Source: a virus (taxonomy: Duplodnaviria; Heunggongvirae; Uroviricota; Caudoviricetes). From it: a stretch of 17,603 nt of DNA. Both the position numbers and the translations under genes were made by a program. Each line of letters starts with the position of its first letter. Within the stretch, counting starts at the first letter, position 1. Under the pieces are notes generated by a model. The model was given only the letters and a program-made list of their open reading frames with translations. It did no database searches and was not told the origin of the DNA. The stretch lies in the IMG/VR virus record IMGVR_UViG_2703718840_000011. One strand, written 5' to 3'. This document shows positions 1 through 14,885 of this stretch, one piece after another.

Positions 1-207
1 ATGCCAAACGGCGCTGTGGACGCGTTAAAGGAAGAATTAACTCGACGCATCAGTAAGCGTTATGACGATGTAGAGGTGATCGTAAAAGCCACCAGCAACG
101 ATGGCCTTTCTGTTACACGCACTGCCGATAAAGATTCAGCTAAAACTTTTGTTCAGGAGACTCTGAAAGATACCTGGGAATCTGCTGACGAGTGGTTTGT
201 TCTCTAA
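1..207 (+). CDS. DinI-family (damage-inducible protein I-like) protein; probably 5'-truncated by the window edge
   Basis: 68-aa ORF ending ...[18 protein letters not shown], matching the conserved C-terminal ETWESADxWF signature of DinI-like proteins. Full-length DinI proteins are about 80 aa, so roughly 12 N-terminal residues appear to be missing. Family call is by motif recognition, not a search. Confidence 0.6.
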
Positions 208-1885: not shown

Positions 1886-2688
1886 TTGCAAGGAGCTATC
1901 ATGCACACTGAGTATATATGGCGATATCTTGACATAGAGAAGTTCTCTATGTTACTCGAACAAAATGCTTTATTTTTTTGCTCAGCAAAAAATTTTGAAG
2001 ATCCGTTCGAAGGTGAATTTGCTTGGGGACATACTGGCTATAAAAAATTCATTGAGACACAGGAAAAACTATGCGCTACTCATGGTGCCGGCATGGACTT
2101 AGAGCCTTTCATGGCATTCAATTTAAAGACACTTAAGGAAATAAGCGAGAGGACATATATAAGTTGCTGGCATTGTAACGAACATGAATCTGAAGCTATG
2201 TGGAAGCTGTATTGTAAAAACCCCGCTAAAGGCGTTGTCATAAAATCAAAGAAAAAAACCTCCAAAGCCAACTTGAAAATAATAATCTAAACAAACTACA
2301 ATTAAAACACGTAAAATACATCAAAAATTTCTGGATAAAACAATACAATCCAGAATCAGATGTATTCTTTAACAAGAGACCATCTTTCGAACACGAAAAA
2401 GAGTTTAGAGCTATTTTTCAAGAGAATACCTTTAACACTCCACCTGTAAAGGGAAAATTAGTCCCTGTATCTCTTAATAATCTGTTGGAAGAAATAAGGA
2501 TTTCACCTTTCGCAGATAAGGATTTCAAAAATGAAGTTTTACAAATTTCAAAAAAATATGGACTAGATCTAAAAGTCAAAAACTCTGAAATTGAAATGCA
2601 TCCCATCATGCATGTTGAGGAAGAAATAATTGCAGAAGGCCCCAATTGGTATCAGTCAAAAATCAGGTTGGCAATACGTGATGCTTAA
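1886..2688 (+). pseudogene. DUF2971-like protein gene interrupted by a -1 frame change in an A7 run (track ORFs 1886-2290 and 2485-2688 are the two halves)
   Basis: N-terminal half carries the DUF2971-like signature (RYLDIEKF...LFFCSAKNFEDPFEGE). Frame 1 is open from about 2230 to 2688 and continues the protein sensibly. Adding one A to the A7 run at about 2252-2258 would fuse both halves into one ~267-aa ORF, a typical DUF2971 length. Confidence 0.6.
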
Positions 2689-2740
2689 TCTTATATTGAA
2701 TTTTTTTATGTCTCCTGCTGAAACTAGCTAAAATTTACCA

Positions 2741-2776
2741 AGCCGCAGCACGTTATTGCATACAACGTGTATGCGG
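2741..2776. repeat. 36-bp imperfect palindrome, copy 2 (AGCCGCAGCACGTTATTGCATACAACGTGTATGCGG)
   Basis: Seen directly: 30/36 identity with the copy at 274-309, same orientation. Lies between the stop of the DUF2971-like gene and the stop of tfa (convergent), so it may also act as a hairpin terminator for the minus-strand tail operon. Confidence 0.5.
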
Positions 2777-2791
2777 CGTATCTCAAAACGA

Positions 2792-3376
2792 TTACTCCAT
2801 AACAGGGACAGCAGGCCACTCAATATCCGGTGCTACTGATGTATCAACACGGTTCAGCAACACCCGATACTTTTTCCAGGCTTCCAGCAATGAGGTTTCT
2901 TCCTCCGTTGCAATTTCCAGATCTGCAGCATCCTGAAGCGGCGCAATATGCTCACTGGCTACCTGCATCAGGTTGTTTTTTGTTTCTTCCGCCTCCCGGA
3001 TCCGGAACAGTTTTTCTGCTTCCGTATCCTTCACCCAGGCTGTGCCGTTCCACTTCTGAAACTCCCCTTCCGGCGATAACCAGGTAACATTTTCCGGTAA
3101 CGGACCGAGTTCAGAAATAAATAACTCGTCCCCTGACGCTACGTCATAAACCGTTTTACCCCGATGGTCTTCAACGAGATGCCACGATGCCTCATCACTG
3201 TTGAAAACAGCCACAAAGCCAGCAGGAATATCTGGTGGTGCAATATCGGTACTGTTTGCTGGCAGACCTGTATGAGGCGGAATATATGCGTCACCTTCAC
3301 CAATAAATTCATTAGTTCCGGCCAGCAGATTATAAATTTTTATGGTCCGTGCTTGTTCACTCATTCTGAATGCCAT
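2792..3376 (-). CDS. tfa: Tail fiber assembly protein (Tfa family, lambdoid type)
   Basis: 194-aa [57 protein letters not shown]... closely matches Tfa proteins of E. coli lambdoid prophages as I recall them. Start overlaps the stop of the upstream stf-type ORF (TAATG). Confidence 0.85.
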
Positions 3377-4455
3377 TATGCAAGCCTCACAATATAGTTA
3401 AATGCGATGTTTTTGACGGTGTTTTCCGCGTTACCCGCAGCGTTAACGGTGATGGTGTGTCCATGTGAACCAATCGCAACGGAGTGCGTATGCGCACCAA
3501 TACCTACAGTATGTGCATGTGCGCCAGAACTTGCTGCAGTACCAGACAGCGAGTGGGTATGAGCACCTGCTGACTGTGTCTGAATACGTTGATAATACGA
3601 TCTATAGGAAGAAGTCTCCGGGCTTACTTGATACTGTGAATTCTGGACATAAGTGAACCCACCGCCATCATAAAATGCTAACGCAGAACCGCCGCCTCCT
3701 GGCCAACGAATACCATTACCATGAGTATGAACACCGGCAGACCCCGTAGAGCCACTCAGACTGTGCGTATGCGCCCCGGTGTTATTCGTGGATTTAGTGC
3801 CGTAATCAAACGACGATGTGGTTTTCGTCCCTAAATCCGTACTGGATGCGCTGGCGCTGTGGGTGTGCGATTTAATGCCGTCCTGTTCCTGAGACAATAC
3901 GGCCCGGCCACTGGCGGGTTTGCCCTTGATTGTCCAGCCGCGCATATCTGGAATAACACCTGAAGGATAGGCAATAGCCAGTTTCGGATATGCTGCCTTA
4001 TCAAACGTCTGCCCCTGCATGATTGCATAACCTGCAGGTGGTGTATCTGATGGCCACGGCAGCGGAACACCTGGCGGAAACGCTTCAATATTTGCCGAGC
4101 CGTCAAATTTTACGCCGTTAATTGTCCTTGCAGTTTGCAATTTGGTTGCTGTGCTTGCATTACCCGATAAAGATCCAGTGATACCACCACTCGCGTTTAA
4201 TTTAGTTGCAATTGTAACATTGCCAGTATGGTTACTAATTATAAACGGCCTTAAGCTATTGTGCGTACCAAGACTGTTAAACTCATAACGGTATTTCACG
4301 TTAATCCCGTTCAGATCATCACTACCGGGAACGTTCGTCGAGGCATGGAGATACCCCGCGCTCAGCGTGGACTGATGTTCTGCTGCACTCGCTGGCGTAG
4401 CAGCGGCGACCTGCCAGACTACTGCGGACAAAATAACAGCACATAATTTACGCAT
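3376..4455 (-). CDS. Chimeric ORF: Lom-type signal peptide and N-terminus (~60 aa) fused in frame to the C-terminal part of a side tail fiber (Stf-type) protein
   Basis: N-terminus [59 protein letters not shown] is lambda Lom-like (signal peptide plus first beta strands). The rest is tail-fiber-like ([13 protein letters not shown], repeated HxH motifs, C-terminal [11 protein letters not shown]). Junction near 4270-4285. GAGG RBS upstream of the ATG. Confidence 0.7.
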
Positions 4456-4477: not shown

Positions 4478-4504
4478 ATAAAAAAGGCGCCATTTCTGGC
4501 GCCC
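4478..4504 (-). terminator. Rho-independent terminator between J remnant and lom' (tJ-like)
   Basis: On the minus strand: GGCGCC-AGAAAT-GGCGCC hairpin followed by TTTTTTATTGC, located between the J' stop and the lom' RBS. Confidence 0.55.
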
Positions 4505-4522: not shown

Positions 4523-5660
4523 TCAGCTAATCGTGATGCCTGCAGTGGCTTTCTTCATCACCACAACCAGCAAATCGCTGATACTTGCTGTGGGATACCA
4601 GTTATTTACCAGCCATGCTGACACCGAAAACTCCAGTGTCATGTGACCGTGACCGGCAGGCATATCAATAACACCACTGTAAATCAGCGTATTATCCAGC
4701 GCGGTACGGTTATAAATTTCAGCACCGTTTTTCCGTACTATCAGGCGGCATAACGAATAAATATCGTTATTCTCCCGCTCATGTTTAGCGCCGCTGAATG
4801 CCACCGCCGGAATAACAATCTGCCGGTCAAACGGCTGATCGTCATAAACCCTGACGGTGATGGTCCCTGATGGCCACCGTTCCGGTGCACGGGAGTCCCG
4901 GGGGAAAGCTTTGCCCACTGTTTTAACGAGATCGCCTTCAATCTGGTTGGCGGACAATTTTCCCAGAACCCGACAGTTCTCGTTAATCGTGACGTTGTTG
5001 AGCGTCCCGGAGTTCGCATTCACGTTACCGCTGATATCGGCATTTTTCGCCGTCAGCCGCCCGTCCGGTGTCAGGGAAAATGCCGGAGGATTACCGCCGC
5101 TGGTAATGGTCGGAGCCGTCAGGCGTTTCAGGAACACGTCGTTCATGAATATCTGATCGCCCTGACCAACAAACATCGGCTTTGTGTTGCCATTCGCAGG
5201 ATTAATCATCGCAATCCGGTCAGCAGCCAGAAGCACCTGACTCTGCATACCTGCTGGCGTATTCTCAATACCGGCTCCGATACCCGCAATATAAAGGCGT
5301 CCGTCCTTCATCTGCTGCAGTTTCACGGCCCACATGCTGTTCAGGTTATTATTTGTATCAACCTGAACTTTCTGTATCTGCTGGATTGCCGCACTCTGGT
5401 CTTCCAGTTTTTTATTGACGGTCTGCGTGATTTCATTGCTGACATTCGTAATGGACGTCCTGATTTCAGCCAGGTCCGGCGCAAGCTGACCGTTATCAAT
5501 CTGCGTCCACAACTCCTGGGCCAGATGTGTTTTCCCGATTTCTCCTTTGAAAAAATCCAGGTAACCTTCCGCATCATCGCTCGCCCGACCGACAGCCTCC
5601 ACGAATGCCGATTTGCCAACGGTGTTCACACTGCGAACGTAAAAATAATAATCATGGCCC
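4523..5660 (-). pseudogene. C-terminal ~380-aa fragment of J-type host specificity (central tail fiber) protein; N-terminal two-thirds deleted
   Basis: Translation from ...[39 protein letters not shown]... through [30 protein letters not shown] to the C-terminus matches the C-terminal region of lambda J as I recall it. The first ~34 codons of the track ORF (starting at 5758) are out-of-frame read-through of rusA sequence. Full J proteins are about 1100 aa. Confidence 0.7.
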
Positions 5661-5891
5661 GGTTTGATATTGATACTGGCGGCTATCCGGAGGAAACAAC
5701 ACGATCTCCACTGAAGCAGGTGCCGACGTTGGTTTCGGCAGGCGACGTAACTGCTCAACTATTGCTGCGCACGCCGCGCTCTGGAATTTGCGCCCCGCTG
5801 CGCTTATCAGACTCTTACCAGCAAACGCCCCTTTGTTGGGGTGTCGCCAGTACGTGTTCACGCTGGGCGGAAAAGGCAGGATCAGCTTCAT
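5652..5891 (-). pseudogene. rusA: RusA-family Holliday junction resolvase, N-terminal fragment (truncated at the deletion junction with J)
   Basis: MKLILPFPPSVNTYWRH... matches the RusA N-terminal LPxPPSxN motif. The ORF ends after 79 aa with non-homologous residues (YQYQTGP), whereas RusA is about 120 aa. GAGAGGGG RBS and ATGA overlap with the upstream gene are intact. Confidence 0.55.
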
Positions 5892-6214
5892 ACTTTCAGG
5901 CCCCTCTCATGTAACCAGTGGGCTGCACGCAGCCTGGCGTTTTCCTCACCGGCAAGCAGTGCGCGGATAATCCCGACCGCCTCGCTGTCGTCGTCCTTCA
6001 CAGCGGTATGAAGCGTTATCCCCCGTGCCACGCCACGCTTTATCGTGATGACGCCTTTTTTCTCCAGTGCGCGAAGATGCTCCACCGCTGCATTCACCGA
6101 ACGGTATCCCAGCATGGTTGCCACCTCCTGATTGGTTGGCGGAAAGCCACGCTCTTTCTGGTAAGAAATCAGCATATCCAGCACCTGCTGCTGGCATTGA
6201 GTTAACGTCGTCAT
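5888..6214 (-). CDS. Small winged-helix DNA-binding protein resembling the LexA N-terminal DNA-binding domain (no S24 peptidase domain)
   Basis: 108 aa; QQQVLDMLISYQKERGFPPTNQEVATMLGYRSVNAAVEHLRALEKKGVITIKRGVARGITL parallels the LexA DNA-binding domain (QQEVFDLI...[36 protein letters not shown]). ATGA overlaps at both ends and a GGAG RBS. Confidence 0.55.
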   Translation of the reverse strand: MTTLTQCQQQVLDMLISYQKERGFPPTNQEVATMLGYRSVNAAVEHLRALEKKGVITIKRGVARGITLHTAVKDDDSEAVGIIRALLAGEENARLRAAHWLHERGLKV

Positions 6215-6864
6215 GCCGCCATCTCCCTGACCAGTTTTTCCGCCTGCTGGCGAACCTGCACCAGAAAGGCTTCACCACATGCCTCAAGTTCATCGCGCCC
6301 GATGTAGCTGATTGCCGGTCCCTTCCAGGTCTTGTCGAAAACAGCAATAGCACCAGCGAAGAAAGCGCCTGTCGGCACCTGCTTCTCATCCTTCGGGATA
6401 AACCAGGCAGGCAGTTCAAAACCAATACGCCCGCGAATAAAAGCAATATGGTCCGCATCTTCCGGCCACCACACTTCGCTGGTGGCAGCTTTGATCAGGA
6501 AAACATAGCGCCCGCCCTTATCACGCATGGCACTGGCATGTTTCATGATGTAACGCATGCCGGTGATGTATTGTCCCTCATGCTGACTGGCGCGGCTGTA
6601 TGGGGGATTACCAAAGGCAGCACCTTTAAGCTCCGCAAGACGTTCTGACCAGTCATGCGCCAGCGCGTTATCTTCCGCCGTGTAATACGCGGCACATTTG
6701 GCGTTATCACCGTCAGTAAACAGATCCAGAACAAACGGGCCAAACAGGGTGTTAATTCCCCAGAAAATGTTGTCCGGCGTGCGCCACTGATCGCCCACTT
6801 CCTTCAGTTCATGGGCTGGTTTGTTCCGCAGTTCCACCAGCGCCTGGCAATATTTATTACTCAT
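6211..6864 (-). CDS. Phage-type DNA N6-adenine methyltransferase (Dam family)
   Basis: MSNKYCQALVELRNKPAHELKEVGDQWRTPDNIFWGINTLFGPFVLDLFTDGDNAKCAAYYTAEDNALAHDW... with catalytic NPPY motif (GNPPYS). I place the start at the internal ATG (6864, residue 12 of the track ORF), which overlaps the O-like stop by 1 nt and is preceded by a GGGGG RBS. Confidence 0.8.
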   Translation of the reverse strand: MSNKYCQALVELRNKPAHELKEVGDQWRTPDNIFWGINTLFGPFVLDLFTDGDNAKCAAYYTAEDNALAHDWSERLAELKGAAFGNPPYSRASQHEGQYITGMRYIMKHASAMRDKGGRYVFLIKAATSEVWWPEDADHIAFIRGRIGFELPAWFIPKDEKQVPTGAFFAGAIAVFDKTWKGPAISYIGRDELEACGEAFLVQVRQQAEKLVREMAA

Positions 6865-7817
6865 TAAGCCCCCACGTAATTCCCTGACAGATACCACTCT
6901 TCACCCGATGCAGCGCGCTTGCTGCTTTTCCGTAAACACCGCTCTTCGCGTTTTTCGGTGTACGTGCTGACGGACGGCGATAAGCGCAGGGAAAGCTCAT
7001 CCCATTTTTCCCGCAACTTCGACGGGCTGAGCACGTTACGGCACCAGAACGGATCGCGGCTGACGCGGCTGTACATCTCGCAGATTTGTTTGTGAGTACG
7101 ACCATCCTGCACACACATCAGGCGAATTTCGTTTGCCCAGGCTGTCCAGTTCGGTTCTTTGGGACGAACCACCTCGCCGTCACATTCGGCGGCTTGCTCG
7201 TACAGGGCGATGATTTTTTTCCAGAGCCACTGTGCGCAGGTCAAATCATCCTGCGTTCCCCACTGGCGCTTTTTAGGGCTGAATACAACCGCATCAGGAT
7301 GGCGAGTTAAAAAATCCTGTTCATCCGTCTGCGTGTCCGGTTGCGAAGCGTCCGGACGAGAAGGTTTTTTATCTGACGGATCATGTTTTGATTTTACTGA
7401 CGGATCCCCGCCAGATTCTGACGGGTGAAAACCCGCTTTTTTGCCAGATTTCGACGCATCAAATTTTGACGGGTCAGATTTTGATGCGTCAGATTTTGAC
7501 GGGTCAGAATCTGACAGTTGAGAAAATGCCGCTGCCTGAAGCTTCGCAACGTTAAGCTGATAAACATTCGACGCATTGCGGTTACCCTGGCGACGCGCCT
7601 TACGCGTTAACCAGCCTTCTGCTTCCAGCCGTGCGATAGCCGTTCTGACGGTACTCATCCCCGCGCCAATCTGACGGGCAATGGTTTCAATTGATGGCCA
7701 GCACACACCTTCGTCATTACTGAAATCAGCCAGGCGGGCCATAATTGCCACGCTGGATAATTTCATGCCTGATGCAGCGCAACCATCCCATACATAGCCG
7801 GTTAATTTAGTGCTCAT
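6864..7817 (-). CDS. Replication initiator, lambda O-like (N-terminal wHTH origin-binding domain, repetitive acidic linker, C-terminal domain)
   Basis: 317 aa; N-terminus MSTKLTGYVWDGCAASGMKLSSVAIMARLADFSNDEGVCWPSIETIARQIGAGMSTVRTAIARLEAEGWL is typical of phage replication O-type HTH domains. An internal repetitive linker (SDSDPSKSDASKSDPSKFDASKSGKK) is encoded by an iteron array. GAGG RBS 6 nt upstream. Confidence 0.7.
   Translation of the reverse strand: MSTKLTGYVWDGCAASGMKLSSVAIMARLADFSNDEGVCWPSIETIARQIGAGMSTVRTAIARLEAEGWLTRKARRQGNRNASNVYQLNVAKLQAAAFSQLSDSDPSKSDASKSDPSKFDASKSGKKAGFHPSESGGDPSVKSKHDPSDKKPSRPDASQPDTQTDEQDFLTRHPDAVVFSPKKRQWGTQDDLTCAQWLWKKIIALYEQAAECDGEVVRPKEPNWTAWANEIRLMCVQDGRTHKQICEMYSRVSRDPFWCRNVLSPSKLREKWDELSLRLSPSVSTYTEKREERCLRKSSKRAASGEEWYLSGNYVGA
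7369..7517. repeat. Iteron array (candidate phage origin of replication) inside the O-like gene
   Basis: Seen directly: about 8 copies of a ~15-bp unit with core (A/C)AGATTTTGACGGGTC. The last five (about 7445-7517) are strictly tandem: cagatttcgacgcat / caaattttgacgggt / cagattttgatgcgt / cagattttgacgggt / cagaatctgacag. Parallels ori-lambda, which lies within O. Confidence 0.55.
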
Positions 7818-7826
7818 GACCGACCT

Positions 7827-8165
7827 CTACTTCCCTGAATTTACGACGAAACTGTTCGAGCGGGCTGAAGCACTCATGCTCATAGCCTTCGCGGAGGTAG
7901 ATAACCCGTTGTGTTTCCGGCTCCCAACGAATGACTCTGACGGGCACTCCGTAGTGATCTTTGAACCAGCGGTTAACTTGTCGCAAAGGACTGTCTCCTT
8001 CTGCCGGTTGAAATCACCCACAGCCCACTCTGCAAAGCTGTGGGTTACAATTTCCCTGTCACCTGGTACATTTACTGCATAGCAATACTCCACCTTCGCT
8101 TTTCCACCCGGTACAGGAAGTGCAATCAGTTGCGAGCGACGGTAGTGTGTTGTTAAACTGTTCAT
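7827..8165 (-). CDS. Hypothetical protein (112 aa) between cII-like and O-like genes
   Basis: Start overlaps the cII-like stop (ATGA) and the stop lies 10 nt before the O-like start. The C-terminal third is low-complexity, so the true extent is uncertain. No family recognised. Confidence 0.4.
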
Positions 8166-8957: not shown

Positions 8958-9054
8958 ACGCCCTCCAAACTAAGTTTTATTAGATGCTAATTACAAATCT
9001 ATCTTTGGTCAATAAAAACTAAGATTACTTAGCAATTCAAGAAATGGTGCTCCT
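8958..9054. promoter_or_regulatory. Immunity switch region (OR-like): divergent promoters with palindromic operator candidates
   Basis: Palindromes TTAGATGCTAA (about 8980-8990) and CTAAGATTACTTAG (about 9019-9032); ACTAAG repeated at about 8969 and 9018. Candidate minus-strand promoter TTGACC-17 bp-TAGCAT whose -10 overlaps the first palindrome. Confidence 0.4.
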
Positions 9055-9681
9055 ATGGAAACGGTTGGTCAGCGTATAAAAGCTCTGAGAAGAGTTACCA
9101 GAACGTCCCAGAAAGAATTGGGTAAATTTTGTGGAGTAAGCGACGTTGCTGTGGGGTACTGGGAGAAAGACATCAATACCCCTGGTGGGGAGGCACTTTC
9201 GAAATTAGCGAAGTTCTTCAATACGTCAATAGATTACATTCTTTATGGTGCTGAGTTTGAAGGCAAACTCGTCACAAACATGCGCAGAGTTCCTGTAATA
9301 TCGTGGGTTCAGGCTGGGCAGTTTACTGAGTGCAGGGCAGCAGAAGTGTTTAGTGAAGTGGACAAGTGGGTAGATACATCATTAAAGATTGGTGATAACT
9401 CATTTGCATTAGAGGTTAAAGGTGACTCCATGACTAACCCTAATGGCCTCCCAACAATACCAGAAGGCGCAACAGTGATTGTAGATCCAGATGCAGAACC
9501 TCGTCATGGAAAAATAGTCATCGCTCGACTTGATGGAACAAACGAAGCTACAGTAAAAAAATTAGTCATCGATGGCCCTCAAAAGTTTTTAGTGCCATTA
9601 AATCCTCGGTATCCCAACATCCCTATCAATGGTAATTGCCTTATCATTGGTGTAGTCAAAGGAGTTCAATACGAACTCTAA
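9055..9681 (+). CDS. cI-like prophage repressor (N-terminal XRE-type HTH, C-terminal S24 LexA-like autopeptidase)
   Basis: 208 aa; HTH QKELGKFCGVSDVAVGYWEKD; C-terminal domain with Ser nucleophile in GDSMTNP and Lys in ATVKKLVIDG, the hallmark of RecA-stimulated self-cleaving repressors. Confidence 0.85.
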   Translation: METVGQRIKALRRVTRTSQKELGKFCGVSDVAVGYWEKDINTPGGEALSKLAKFFNTSIDYILYGAEFEGKLVTNMRRVPVISWVQAGQFTECRAAEVFSEVDKWVDTSLKIGDNSFALEVKGDSMTNPNGLPTIPEGATVIVDPDAEPRHGKIVIARLDGTNEATVKKLVIDGPQKFLVPLNPRYPNIPINGNCLIIGVVKGVQYEL

Positions 9682-13494: not shown

Positions 13495-13704
13495 ATGGCA
13501 AAACTAATGAAAGCGAGCCAATGGGGACGCCGTGAATTCTCTAATGGCTCAATTCCTGACAACCGAACGATAAAACGCTGGGTCGAGAACGGTCTGCTCA
13601 TGGGGCGTATAGTGGACGGTTCTGTTTTTGTCTGCGAAACAGAAAAATGGGGAGTCGACTCAATGGTTAGTCAAGCTGTTCGCAAGTTAATAAATGAGGG
13701 ATGA
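13495..13704 (+). CDS. xis: Excisionase (lambda Xis-type)
   Basis: KASQWGRREFSNGSIPDNRTIKRWVENGLLMGRIVDGSVFVCETEKWGV parallels lambda Xis (LQEWNARQRRPRSLETVRRWVRECRIFPP...GREYLFHESAVKV). Start chosen at the ATG with GGAG 8 nt upstream. Its stop overlaps the integrase start. Confidence 0.6.
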   Translation: MAKLMKASQWGRREFSNGSIPDNRTIKRWVENGLLMGRIVDGSVFVCETEKWGVDSMVSQAVRKLINEG

Positions 13705-14885
13705 CCATGGCGGCAAGGCCACGTAAAAAAGAATACAGACATCTTCCTGATTATCTGGTTTTTGATAAAGATCGAGGTGTTTATAAATTCACACTTATTA
13801 CCGGAAAAAAGAAAAATATAGGTAAGGATCGGGCAATAGCCGTTGCAATCGCCAGAGAGTACAACCTGAGGATGCGATCAGAATTATACCCATCAGTGGA
13901 TAATCTTATTAGAGAATCTGGCGGGGTCACCGGAGAAGCAAAACCATTTGCTGAACATGTCGATCACATAATGGCCAGAATTATCGAAGACGAACGACCT
14001 TCCCAGAGTACCTTAGATGACTGGAAAAATGACGCTCTACGCGTAAAAGCATTTTTCGTAAATGTTCCGGCATGCGATATCGAACTTGAACACGTTAATG
14101 CCTACATCAACAAATATCATGCCAGCGCATCCGCAAATGTGCAGAACAGAAAGGTCAGCTTTCTTAAAAAGTTGTTCTCTTATGCGGTCGATGAATCACT
14201 AATGCAGGATAACCCGGCCATCAGAAAAAAAATGCGTAGGACTGATGAGAAGAAAAGACGGCGCCTGTCACTCGAGCATTTTATAGCTATCAGGCAGGCC
14301 GCTGCACCATGGTTAAGAACAGCAATGGACCTAGCATTGCAGACTACACATGCACGACTCGAAGTATCGCGAATCCGTTACTCAATTCGCGAACCTAAAG
14401 ACGGTTTATGTGGATGTGTTTGGTTCGAACAACCACAAAATGGCATATATGGTACACTATACATCCATAGGCAAAAAGTACAAAAAAAGGAGGCATCACA
14501 TGTTGCAATACCAATTGGTGAAGAATTGAAACGGATAATTGACAATAGCCGTGACAATGTGGCCAGTCCCTTTGTCGTTCATAGAATCCCAGAACGGCAT
14601 GTTAAACGCAGTAAAGAGGTTTCGCACCCAACTCAAGTTGCACCAGATTATTTGAGTCGGTCATTCTCTTCCGTGCGAGACAAACTCGGACTATGCAATC
14701 ATCTAGCAATGGAACAAAGACCTACATTCCATGAAATAAGAGCTTTGGCAGCTCACCTATTTGATAAACAAGGGATTGATCCGCAGGGACGAATGGCACA
14801 TAGCGATGCGAAATCTACTAAAATTTATACTAAAAATCATATAGATTGGATTGTTGTCCCTCATGGAGAAATTAAAACCGGTTAG
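13701..14885 (+). CDS. int: Tyrosine-type site-specific integrase (lambda Int family)
   Basis: 394 aa. C-terminal catalytic region with H-x-x-R (TFHEIRALAAHLF) and the tyrosine motif (MAHSDAKSTKIYTKNH). Arm-binding-like N-terminus. Xis immediately upstream. Confidence 0.9.
   Translation: MTMAARPRKKEYRHLPDYLVFDKDRGVYKFTLITGKKKNIGKDRAIAVAIAREYNLRMRSELYPSVDNLIRESGGVTGEAKPFAEHVDHIMARIIEDERPSQSTLDDWKNDALRVKAFFVNVPACDIELEHVNAYINKYHASASANVQNRKVSFLKKLFSYAVDESLMQDNPAIRKKMRRTDEKKRRRLSLEHFIAIRQAAAPWLRTAMDLALQTTHARLEVSRIRYSIREPKDGLCGCVWFEQPQNGIYGTLYIHRQKVQKKEASHVAIPIGEELKRIIDNSRDNVASPFVVHRIPERHVKRSKEVSHPTQVAPDYLSRSFSSVRDKLGLCNHLAMEQRPTFHEIRALAAHLFDKQGIDPQGRMAHSDAKSTKIYTKNHIDWIVVPHGEIKTG

Follow-up and report, generated by a model that had tools for sequence, protein, structure and literature searches.

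The stretch of DNA analysed here (the window) is 17,603 nucleotides long and comes from a virus of the Caudoviricetes (Duplodnaviria; Heunggongvirae; Uroviricota; IMG/VR record IMGVR_UViG_2703718840_000011). At positions 5888..6214 of its minus strand lies an open reading frame (ORF) with an ATG start that encodes a 108-aa protein, which is a stand-alone relative of LexA's DNA-binding domain (DBD). It belongs to the SfV orf42 family, and is flanked by the gene of a phage Dam-family methyltransferase and by rusA', the remnant of a Holliday-junction resolvase gene (Table 1).

A LexA-type winged helix without a protease domain

The initial annotation described the protein as resembling the LexA winged-helix domain only, with the autocleavage domain absent, and the profile search that it called for bears this out. 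The Pfam profile LexA_DNA_bind (PF01726) is matched from end to end, residues 1–65 of the protein covering positions 1–65 of 65 with 69 bits (E 2.9e-19; gathering threshold 23.7 bits). All other winged helix-turn-helix (wHTH) families, including the next-best HTH_Crp_2 and Rrf2, fall below their own cutoffs. The same search gave no match to Peptidase_S24 (PF00717) in the 108-aa protein. The LexA equivalog model of NCBIfam, TIGR00498, is matched only over positions 1–91 of 203 and scores 70.5 bits, below its cutoff of 110.95. BLASTP aligns residues 1–90 with E. coli LexA at 43% identity (E 1e-21), and the closest solved structures by sequence are E. coli LexA chains (1lea, E 6.5e-16).

The AlphaFold2 (AF2) model, built from 19 family sequences, has a mean predicted local distance difference test score (pLDDT) of 84.9. 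It consists, up to residue 68, of three helices (6–22, 28–35 and 40–52) and a beta-hairpin wing (strands 56–58 and 66–68). LexA structures fill the top 12 places in the Foldseek search with this model, and superposition on 3jso_B, LexA in a LexA-DNA complex, gives a root-mean-square deviation (rmsd) of 1.0 Å over 68 columns with 50% identity. Sequence and modelled structure both point to LexA and not to a different wHTH family, so the first ground for refutation named in the initial annotation does not apply. BlaI/MecI repressors resemble the protein in overall layout only (wHTH and C-terminal helices): the Foldseek match to Rv1846c is weak (E 9.7e-3, TM score 0.48, rmsd 7.5 Å), and Pfam Penicillinase_R is not matched. 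Membership in a known defence system was considered and rejected; PADLOC gave just one weak, partial match, to a CARF wHTH.

The alignment with LexA is free of gaps to residue 68, so that LexA numbering can be used directly. S39, N41, A42, E44 and E45 are listed as the DNA-binding residues of E. coli LexA (Knegtel 1995, as cited in PMC13416735). The most important base contacts are described as those of N41 and E45, with R28 contacting the backbone (bioRxiv 10.1101/2020.07.14.201889). The window protein retains S39, N41, A42, A43, E45 and H46. Wing residues K53, G54, I56, G61, R64, G65 and I66 are common to the family and LexA. Because the dyad spacing of LexA is attributed to wing contacts (PMC8565304), an isolated DBD could in principle keep the N8 spacing.

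The hinge that follows is acidic in both proteins (KDDDSE vs QEEEEG). Past the hinge, the segment AVGIIRALLAGEE aligns with the LexA cleavage-site strand LPLVGRVAAGEP in both profile hidden Markov model and BLAST alignments (LLAGEE vs VAAGEP), and this continuation into the hinge and cleavage-site region suggests that the gene arose by truncation of a lexA gene. Close relatives have AN or VG in place of A-G, and most relatives at 40–50% identity lack the pair. LLAGEE is therefore probably not a functional cleavage site, and a decoy or trans-substrate mimic was rejected as a conserved feature, since A-G is not kept and the segment is predicted to be helical.

In place of the protease domain, the protein carries a family-specific tail of two helices (residues 74–88 and 93–103; block pLDDT about 90). 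The linker between domain and tail (residues 69–73) is acidic and of low confidence, residues 71–74 being disordered in the model (pLDDT <50). The tail is conserved in relatives at 40–50% identity, with hydrophobic positions kept and A97 and L101 invariant. The tail is too small for a stable stand-alone domain and probably mediates dimerisation.

The ratio of nonsynonymous to synonymous substitution rates (dN/dS) is 0.07–0.15 in comparison with five orthologues, which indicates purifying selection. Together with same-length homologues down to about 40% identity, it shows that the gene is not a chance ORF. The stop codon of dam and the start codon of the LexA-DBD gene share an ATGA (6211-6214), and so do the stop codon of the LexA-DBD gene and the start codon of rusA' (5888-5891). 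The translational coupling named in the initial annotation is a prediction from these 4-nt overlaps.

Distribution and annotation of the family

The gene is already known to annotation: PGAP and PHROG 362 name the family, and the database names are transferred annotation. The identical protein is found on at least 1000 contigs under the name 'LexA family transcriptional regulator'. The 327-nt gene is present in 2233 of the 5426 complete E. coli genomes (about 41%), at 95–100% identity and in up to 4 copies per genome. It also occurs in 63 phage records, which include SfV, SfII, SfIV, cdtI, mEp460, Ayreon and many Stx2a, Stx2c and Stx2k phages; identity to the SfV, SfII and cdtI proteins is 96–99%. 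The profile phrog_362 is matched over its whole length, tail included (residues 1–108 against positions 1–106 of 106, E 1.6e-59).

An exhaustive HMMER search of 1.84 billion representative sequences found relatives that keep both the length and the C-terminal tail at identities as low as about 40%. It also gave many other short LexA_DNA_bind proteins, and others with two tandem domains in one chain. The tandem proteins (P0133, P0134, P0148, P0151, P0152, P0157, P0161 and others) are, by length, seemingly too short for S24; if they are without it, such chains would represent another route to a two-headed, non-cleavable LexA-type binder. A contig profile scan with a three-sequence alignment returned mostly genuine lexA genes of Vibrio and Photobacterium, and three family loci only.

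SfV orf42 is annotated as 'unknown' in U82619.2, and no experimental work on the function of this enterobacterial protein was found in the literature library searched. Public records also call the 108-aa protein 'transcriptional repressor', or, despite the lack of a protease domain, 'SOS-response repressor and protease LexA' or 'RecA-mediated autopeptidases'. The adjacent Dam methylase is mislabelled 'phosphoadenosine phosphosulfate reductase' in RefSeq phage records.

The grounded prophage

The window is a grounded lambdoid prophage that has lost everything from rusA to J. The rusA frame is truncated after about 70 codons and fused to J' at the deletion junction (window 5652-5891 and 4523-5758); the first 71 residues of its product are 99% identical to RusA, and the sequence diverges afterwards. 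Q and the genes for lysis, head and tail were lost in the deletion. An identical rusA'/J' junction is present in 7 contigs of public assemblies, and E. coli LR-27 has a similar rusA/tail-tip junction next to prfC, annotated as partial genes, at 95% identity. J' is followed downstream by an ORF in which Lom and tail-fibre parts are fused, and by a tail-fibre assembly gene. The single ORF at 3376-4455 joins the start (first ~63 residues) of an Ail/Lom outer-membrane protein to domains of tail-fibre collar and fibre-repeat type, and is probably a second deletion or fusion scar.

The LexA-DBD gene sits in a delayed-early pR-type operon, between the replication and methylase genes and rusA-DUF968-Q. 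Beyond dam, whose orthologues are annotated as 654 nt (217 aa), the same strand carries an O-like replication gene (6864-7817), a cII-like gene and a pR-like promoter. From its consensus and position, this promoter would drive the leftward early operon with the LexA-DBD gene. The minus-strand scan from the promoter to the gene revealed just one weak terminator-like hairpin (8209-8196); the one after J' (4504-4485) is stronger. We infer that the lysogen does not express the gene, and that its transcription begins once the cI-like repressor has been cleaved. Within the O-like gene, iteron-like tandem inverted repeats (GTCAGATTTTGAC and variants, 7453-7515) coincide with a repetitive stretch of SKSD/PSKS peptide; they probably constitute the origin of the phage.

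The DinI-like gene placed by the initial annotation at the other end of the element is present, cut by the window start. Its proposed concert with the LexA-like gene fares less well: both genes exist, but the link between them is positional only. In LR-27 the DinI-like gene located at this position, next to prfC, is preceded by its own two SOS boxes, CACTGTTTATTCATACAGTT and CACTGTATACAAACACAGTG (L001 2497-2544), consistent with independent regulation by host LexA.

Table 1. Features of the window and of related loci (positions are those of the window unless a locus is named)
Feature	Position	Strand	Evidence and remarks
Stand-alone LexA-DBD gene, SfV orf42 family / PHROG 362	5888..6214	(-)	ORF, PF01726, phrog_362, dN/dS
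LexA-type winged helix-turn-helix, residues 1-68	6011..6214	(-)	AF2 model, Foldseek 3jso_B
Recognition helix, residues 40-52 (VNAAVEHLRALEK)	6059..6097	(-)	Alignment with E. coli LexA; N41, A42, E45 as in LexA, E44->V
Family-specific two-helix tail, residues 74-103	5906..5995	(-)	AF2 model; occupies place of S24 domain
GGAG Shine-Dalgarno sequence	6223..6226	(-)	Read off sequence; 8 nt 5' of ATG, within dam 3' end
Phage Dam-family N6-adenine methyltransferase	6211..6897	(-)	PF05869, E 1.1e-45; PGAP-style ATG at 6864
rusA', truncated Holliday-junction resolvase gene	5652..5891	(-)	79-aa ORF; RusA homology stops near 5680
J', C-terminal fragment of lambda-J-like tail tip	4523..5680	(-)	Matches to Ig_GpJ_C, Phage_Tail_Tip, Ig_J_second
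Intrinsic-terminator-like hairpin and T run	4485..4504	(-)	8 stem pairs, 6 GC; would end leftward transcript after J'
pR-like sigma-70 promoter, TTGACC-17-TAGCAT	8984..9012	(-)	Consensus scan; adjoins divergent cI-like gene
cI-like prophage repressor (HTH_3 and Peptidase_S24)	9055..9681	(+)	PF00717, 9.2e-28; PF01381; RecA-cleavable switch that would gate the early operon
Integrase	13701-14885		
DinI-like gene, 5' end cut by window edge	1..204	(+)	PF06183, 71.6 bits
Covarying inverted repeat	8016-8045; L002 9816-9845; L018 (SfV) 27355-27384; L090 2363-2392; L004 ~3845; L014 ~475		
Sister-clade SOS-box operons	L007 3540-4979; L010 3540-4737; L015 500-1718; L016 2230-3976; L020-L022 ~2380-3600		
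SOS box at N6_N4 methyltransferase gene	L002 3609-3628; L018 (SfV) 34170-34189; L010 6739-6758		

Gene order and linkage to RusA

RusA lies directly 3' of the gene, usually with a 4-nt overlap, in every E. coli-clade phage or prophage inspected (CCUG 73778, SfV, mEp460, LR-27 and SfIV) and in prophages of C. braakii and C. freundii. The order Dam, LexA-DBD, RusA is that of the window in L002, SfV and mEp460, and the LexA-DBD gene also precedes rusA in mEp390, again with a 4-nt overlap, and in diverged loci. The rusA gene is frameshifted in SfIV and truncated in LR-27; the SfIV frameshifted copy (L012 3824-4219) is unannotated in the record. Among nine diverged representatives (40–50% identity), eight have RusA within ~650 bp downstream: codons overlap or abut in four, a 66-67-aa ORF or a gap intervenes in three, and an opposite-strand gene is inserted in one. 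The ninth (L015) has no RusA, and neither do the related L020 and L021.

The upstream neighbour is variable and may be Dam, a large Dcm-like methylase, a PerC-like gene, a replication gene or small ORFs; a role as controller of the upstream methylase was rejected for this reason. Paired identities of the LexA-DBD protein and RusA (100/100, 96/98, 87/92, 67/91 and ~49/75 percent) reveal co-divergence, with the LexA-like protein changing faster. The linkage may reflect conserved lambdoid gene order and not a partnership, because the entire block, LexA-DBD-(ORF67)-RusA-(KilA-N or ANT)-DUF968-Q, is syntenic.

SOS boxes in related loci

In the Klebsiella/Enterobacter sister clade, a near-consensus SOS box heads the LexA-DBD operon in all seven loci examined (L007, L010, L015, L016, L020, L021 and L022). 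It is located 30–150 bp 5' of the first gene of the operon (for example TACTGTTTATTTATACAGTA), and CTGT-N8-ACAG would be expected by chance about 0.01 times per 600 bp. In L007, L010 and L015, the loci whose flanks were read, a sigma-70-like promoter overlaps the box, and in L007 and L010 the box comes after a terminator-like hairpin. The operon begins with DinI (three operons), a stand-alone RecA C-terminal domain (RecA_C, PF21096, 39 bits; one operon) or neither, and continues with a conserved ORF of ~80 aa that belongs to no known family, LexA-DBD, a 67-aa ORF, RusA where present, DUF968 and Q.

A scan for CTGT dyads in 201 kb of family loci covered both orientations at spacings of 0–20, and N8 is the only enriched CTGT..ACAG spacing (14 observed vs 2.0 expected). 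Judged by these sequences, the sister-clade gene is very probably under host LexA control, and it travels with RecA modulators; this gives real if indirect support for an SOS-related role. In these phages host LexA may also directly gate the Q-containing operon.

Elsewhere in related phages, SOS boxes are found upstream of DinI-like genes (LR-27, mEp390). In several gene-carrying phages an SOS box, TACTGTAAAAATAAACAGTG, is conserved at or just upstream of the start of an N6_N4-type DNA methyltransferase gene, between Q and the lysis genes. SfIV has a good SOS box, TACTGTATTTATGAACAGTA (L012 4265-4284), between rusA and gp44; gp44 is annotated as 'transcriptional regulator', and the syntenic gene of related phages is of KilA-N type.

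Inverted repeats near the LexA-DBD gene are unremarkable, and the only notable ones are the iteron-like repeats of the replication gene. An apparent excess of ACAG-N14-CTGT was traced to a covarying inverted repeat at a fixed place in a 112-aa ORF downstream of the cII-like gene. The repeat is 6–9 bp long with 6-bp cores 14 nt apart, and exists in the forms CCACAG...CTGTGG and CTACCA...TGGTAG, with different spacers and encoded residues. It was not taken as an operator, as it does not track the recognition-helix classes; its covariation suggests an RNA hairpin or a protein-binding dyad.

Proposed mechanism and alternatives

The function put forward, tentatively and with less than even confidence, is that of a LexA mimic which is insensitive to RecA and appears as a delayed-early product. 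Cleavage of the cI-like repressor, or infection, would start its production, and the tail would dimerise it. The dimer would bind dyads of LexA-type CTGT half-sites, most probably SOS boxes, and would thereby re-impose repression on LexA-controlled promoters once host LexA has been destroyed. Because it has no S24 domain, the protein would not undergo RecA-stimulated self-cleavage. Its targets could be host SOS genes, SOS-controlled cargo such as dinI-like genes, or LexA-controlled functions of rival elements. As this grounded prophage is without Q, lysis and structural genes, induction of the protein by DNA damage would leave the cell alive. The N-terminal fragment of LexA alone reportedly binds operators, and is said to repress SOS genes if protected from ClpXP. 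Occupancy of SOS boxes and tuning of the SOS response by the LexA-DBD protein, as suggested in the initial annotation, is plausible on the evidence of the kept contact residues and wing, the SOS-box operons of the sister clade and the DinI-like gene at the other end of the element.

Several observations weigh against this LexA-mimic function. In the window, CTGT-N8-ACAG with at most one mismatch occurs 5 times, vs 5.24 expected, and never perfectly, and no 20-mer with CTG and CAG kept comes within 6 mismatches of the SOS consensus; the window therefore holds no cis target. No SOS box lies near the LexA-DBD gene in the E. coli clade either, and SOS-themed neighbours occur in the sister clade only. 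The window protein differs from LexA by R28->N, P40->V and E44->V, which affects the backbone contact R28 and the listed contact E44 (the status of the latter derives from a nuclear magnetic resonance model). Position 44 is never acidic in the aligned family members. Recognition helices of the sister clade are diverse (NAAAEH, NAVLLH, NTVFIH, YAAYEH), and some members of the family are without E45 or N41 (NTIAGH, NAVLLH, NTVFIH, YAAYEH), and the boxes of their operons are still canonical. The sister-clade boxes are thus host LexA sites which at least some family members are unlikely to recognise, and tuning to SOS boxes cannot be a property of the whole family. Dimerisation through the tail is a prediction. 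Gp6 of phage GIL01, the only LexA-DBD-only phage protein to have been characterised, recognises a different palindrome and is an activator.

The precedent of gp6 leads to the alternative of a private operator, in which the drifted domain represses or activates from its own dyad on phage or a few host promoters, as a delayed-early regulator with no direct effect on the SOS regulon. This is the main rival and is held with somewhat less confidence than the LexA mimic. GIL01 gp6 activates the late promoter P3 from a distinct palindrome centred at -43.5 (PMC6182141). Variation of residues 42–45 in the recognition helix, even in a member 67% identical with a 91%-identical RusA neighbour, would be expected if the targets co-evolve on the phage; all aligned family members lack E44, and the new tail could impose a different dimer geometry. 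On the other hand, no candidate site was found in the operator searches: among the CTGT..ACAG spacings only the SOS box is enriched, inverted repeats nearby are unremarkable, and the lone covarying repeat does not follow the recognition-helix classes. N41 and E45 are kept in the window protein, which has no sequence relationship to gp6, and lambdoid regulation is already covered by the cI, cro, cII and Q circuit.

A role as RusA accessory, in which the wHTH binds DNA (possibly branched or structured) or RusA itself and so directs or restrains the resolvase, is improbable. The constancy of RusA downstream, with a varying upstream neighbour, and the co-divergence of the two proteins speak for it. 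Against it, the adjacency may be mere lambdoid synteny, RusA is absent from L015, L020 and L021, and SfIV and the window keep the gene intact though rusA is frameshifted or truncated. The conserved residues are moreover those of a sequence-specific LexA domain, and RusA of DLP12 and phage 82 is not known to need a partner of this kind. Alignments that reach the hinge and cleavage-site region of LexA (LLAGEE vs VAAGEP) would also suit a non-functional relic, a captured 5' fragment of lexA carried passively in a nin-like region. This explanation is scarcely credible: the low dN/dS, the length and tail kept to 40% identity, the occurrence of the gene in many inducible phages and in 41% of the complete genomes of E. 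coli, and a good Shine-Dalgarno sequence stand against it, and selection and conservation together exclude a dead relic.

A wider form of the LexA-mimic hypothesis regards the whole SfV-orf42 family as a widespread phage anti-SOS device acting at the operator, and is unlikely. The uncleavable LexA surrogate would re-silence promoters or pre-empt induction during infection, with host SOS toxins, division inhibitors, SOS-controlled cargo and the LexA-gated switches of competing prophages as targets. In grounded remnants it would be a damage-inducible, RecA-independent SOS brake. In the sister clade, it and DinI or RecA-C-terminal-domain proteins would make up a cassette under LexA control that hits both RecA and the operator.

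Significance

The object of this analysis is at present an annotated gene with a plausible, putative role. It is carried by ~41% of complete E. coli genomes, sometimes in multiple copies, and by Shiga-toxin, cytolethal-distending-toxin and Shigella serotype-converting phages. If SOS boxes are indeed occupied independently of RecA, the response of lysogens to DNA-damaging antibiotics would be altered, and mutagenesis, persistence through TisB and SulA, and the induction of co-resident LexA-gated prophages and colicins could be affected. An operator-level mechanism would then join the RecA-level anti-SOS factors PsiB and DinI. If the protein acts at a private operator instead, the delayed-early program of a very common lambdoid lineage would contain a regulator that has gone unrecognised.

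Comparison with known systems

The N-terminal domain of E. coli LexA (1LEA, 3JSO) has the same winged-helix fold as the window protein, with about 50% identity, gap-free numbering to 68 and an acidic hinge after the domain. LexA has an S24 protease and dimerisation domain (Ser119/Lys156), whereas the window protein is without it and ends at residue 108 with a private two-helix tail. LexA is encoded by an autoregulated chromosomal gene, the window protein by a gene of a phage early operon.

SfV orf42, PHROG 362 and the PGAP entries WP_000210154 and WP_000210170 represent the same gene, which is 96–100% identical in SfV, SfII, SfIV, cdtI, mEp460, Stx2a and Stx2c phages, as well as in prophages of E. 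coli by the thousand, with the order Dam-LexA-DBD-RusA kept. In contrast to the SfV orf42 copies, the window copy resides in a deleted, grounded prophage with a truncated rusA.

LexA-DBD-only regulators of phages are an established kind, exemplified by gp6 of GIL01 (Betatectivirus), and the window gene is a new example from the very common SfV-orf42 lineage. Gp6, a truncated LexA homologue of 66 aa, binds a GACACA-type palindrome over the -35 region of P3 and acts as an activator (Fornelos et al., 2018; PMC6182141). P3 is repressed by host LexA together with gp7 (PMC6182141). Both proteins are phage LexA DBDs without a cleavage domain, are made early in lytic development (by prediction for the window protein) and belong to phages tied to the host SOS response. 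Gp6 is 44% identical to B. thuringiensis LexA and has no extra tail, compared with ~40 further residues in the window protein. The site and activator role of gp6 are demonstrated. BLASTP gave no alignment of the two proteins at E up to 100, and a common origin was rejected for lack of similarity; the analogy is one of architecture and logic, not of family. Most likely, the two were derived independently, gp6 from a Bacillus-type LexA and the window protein from a proteobacterial LexA.

PsiB and DinI-like proteins have no homology to the LexA-DBD protein and act on RecA filaments, whereas the LexA-DBD protein would act downstream, at the operator. If the LexA-mimic reading holds, the outcome is the same in all of them: the mobile element damps the host SOS response.

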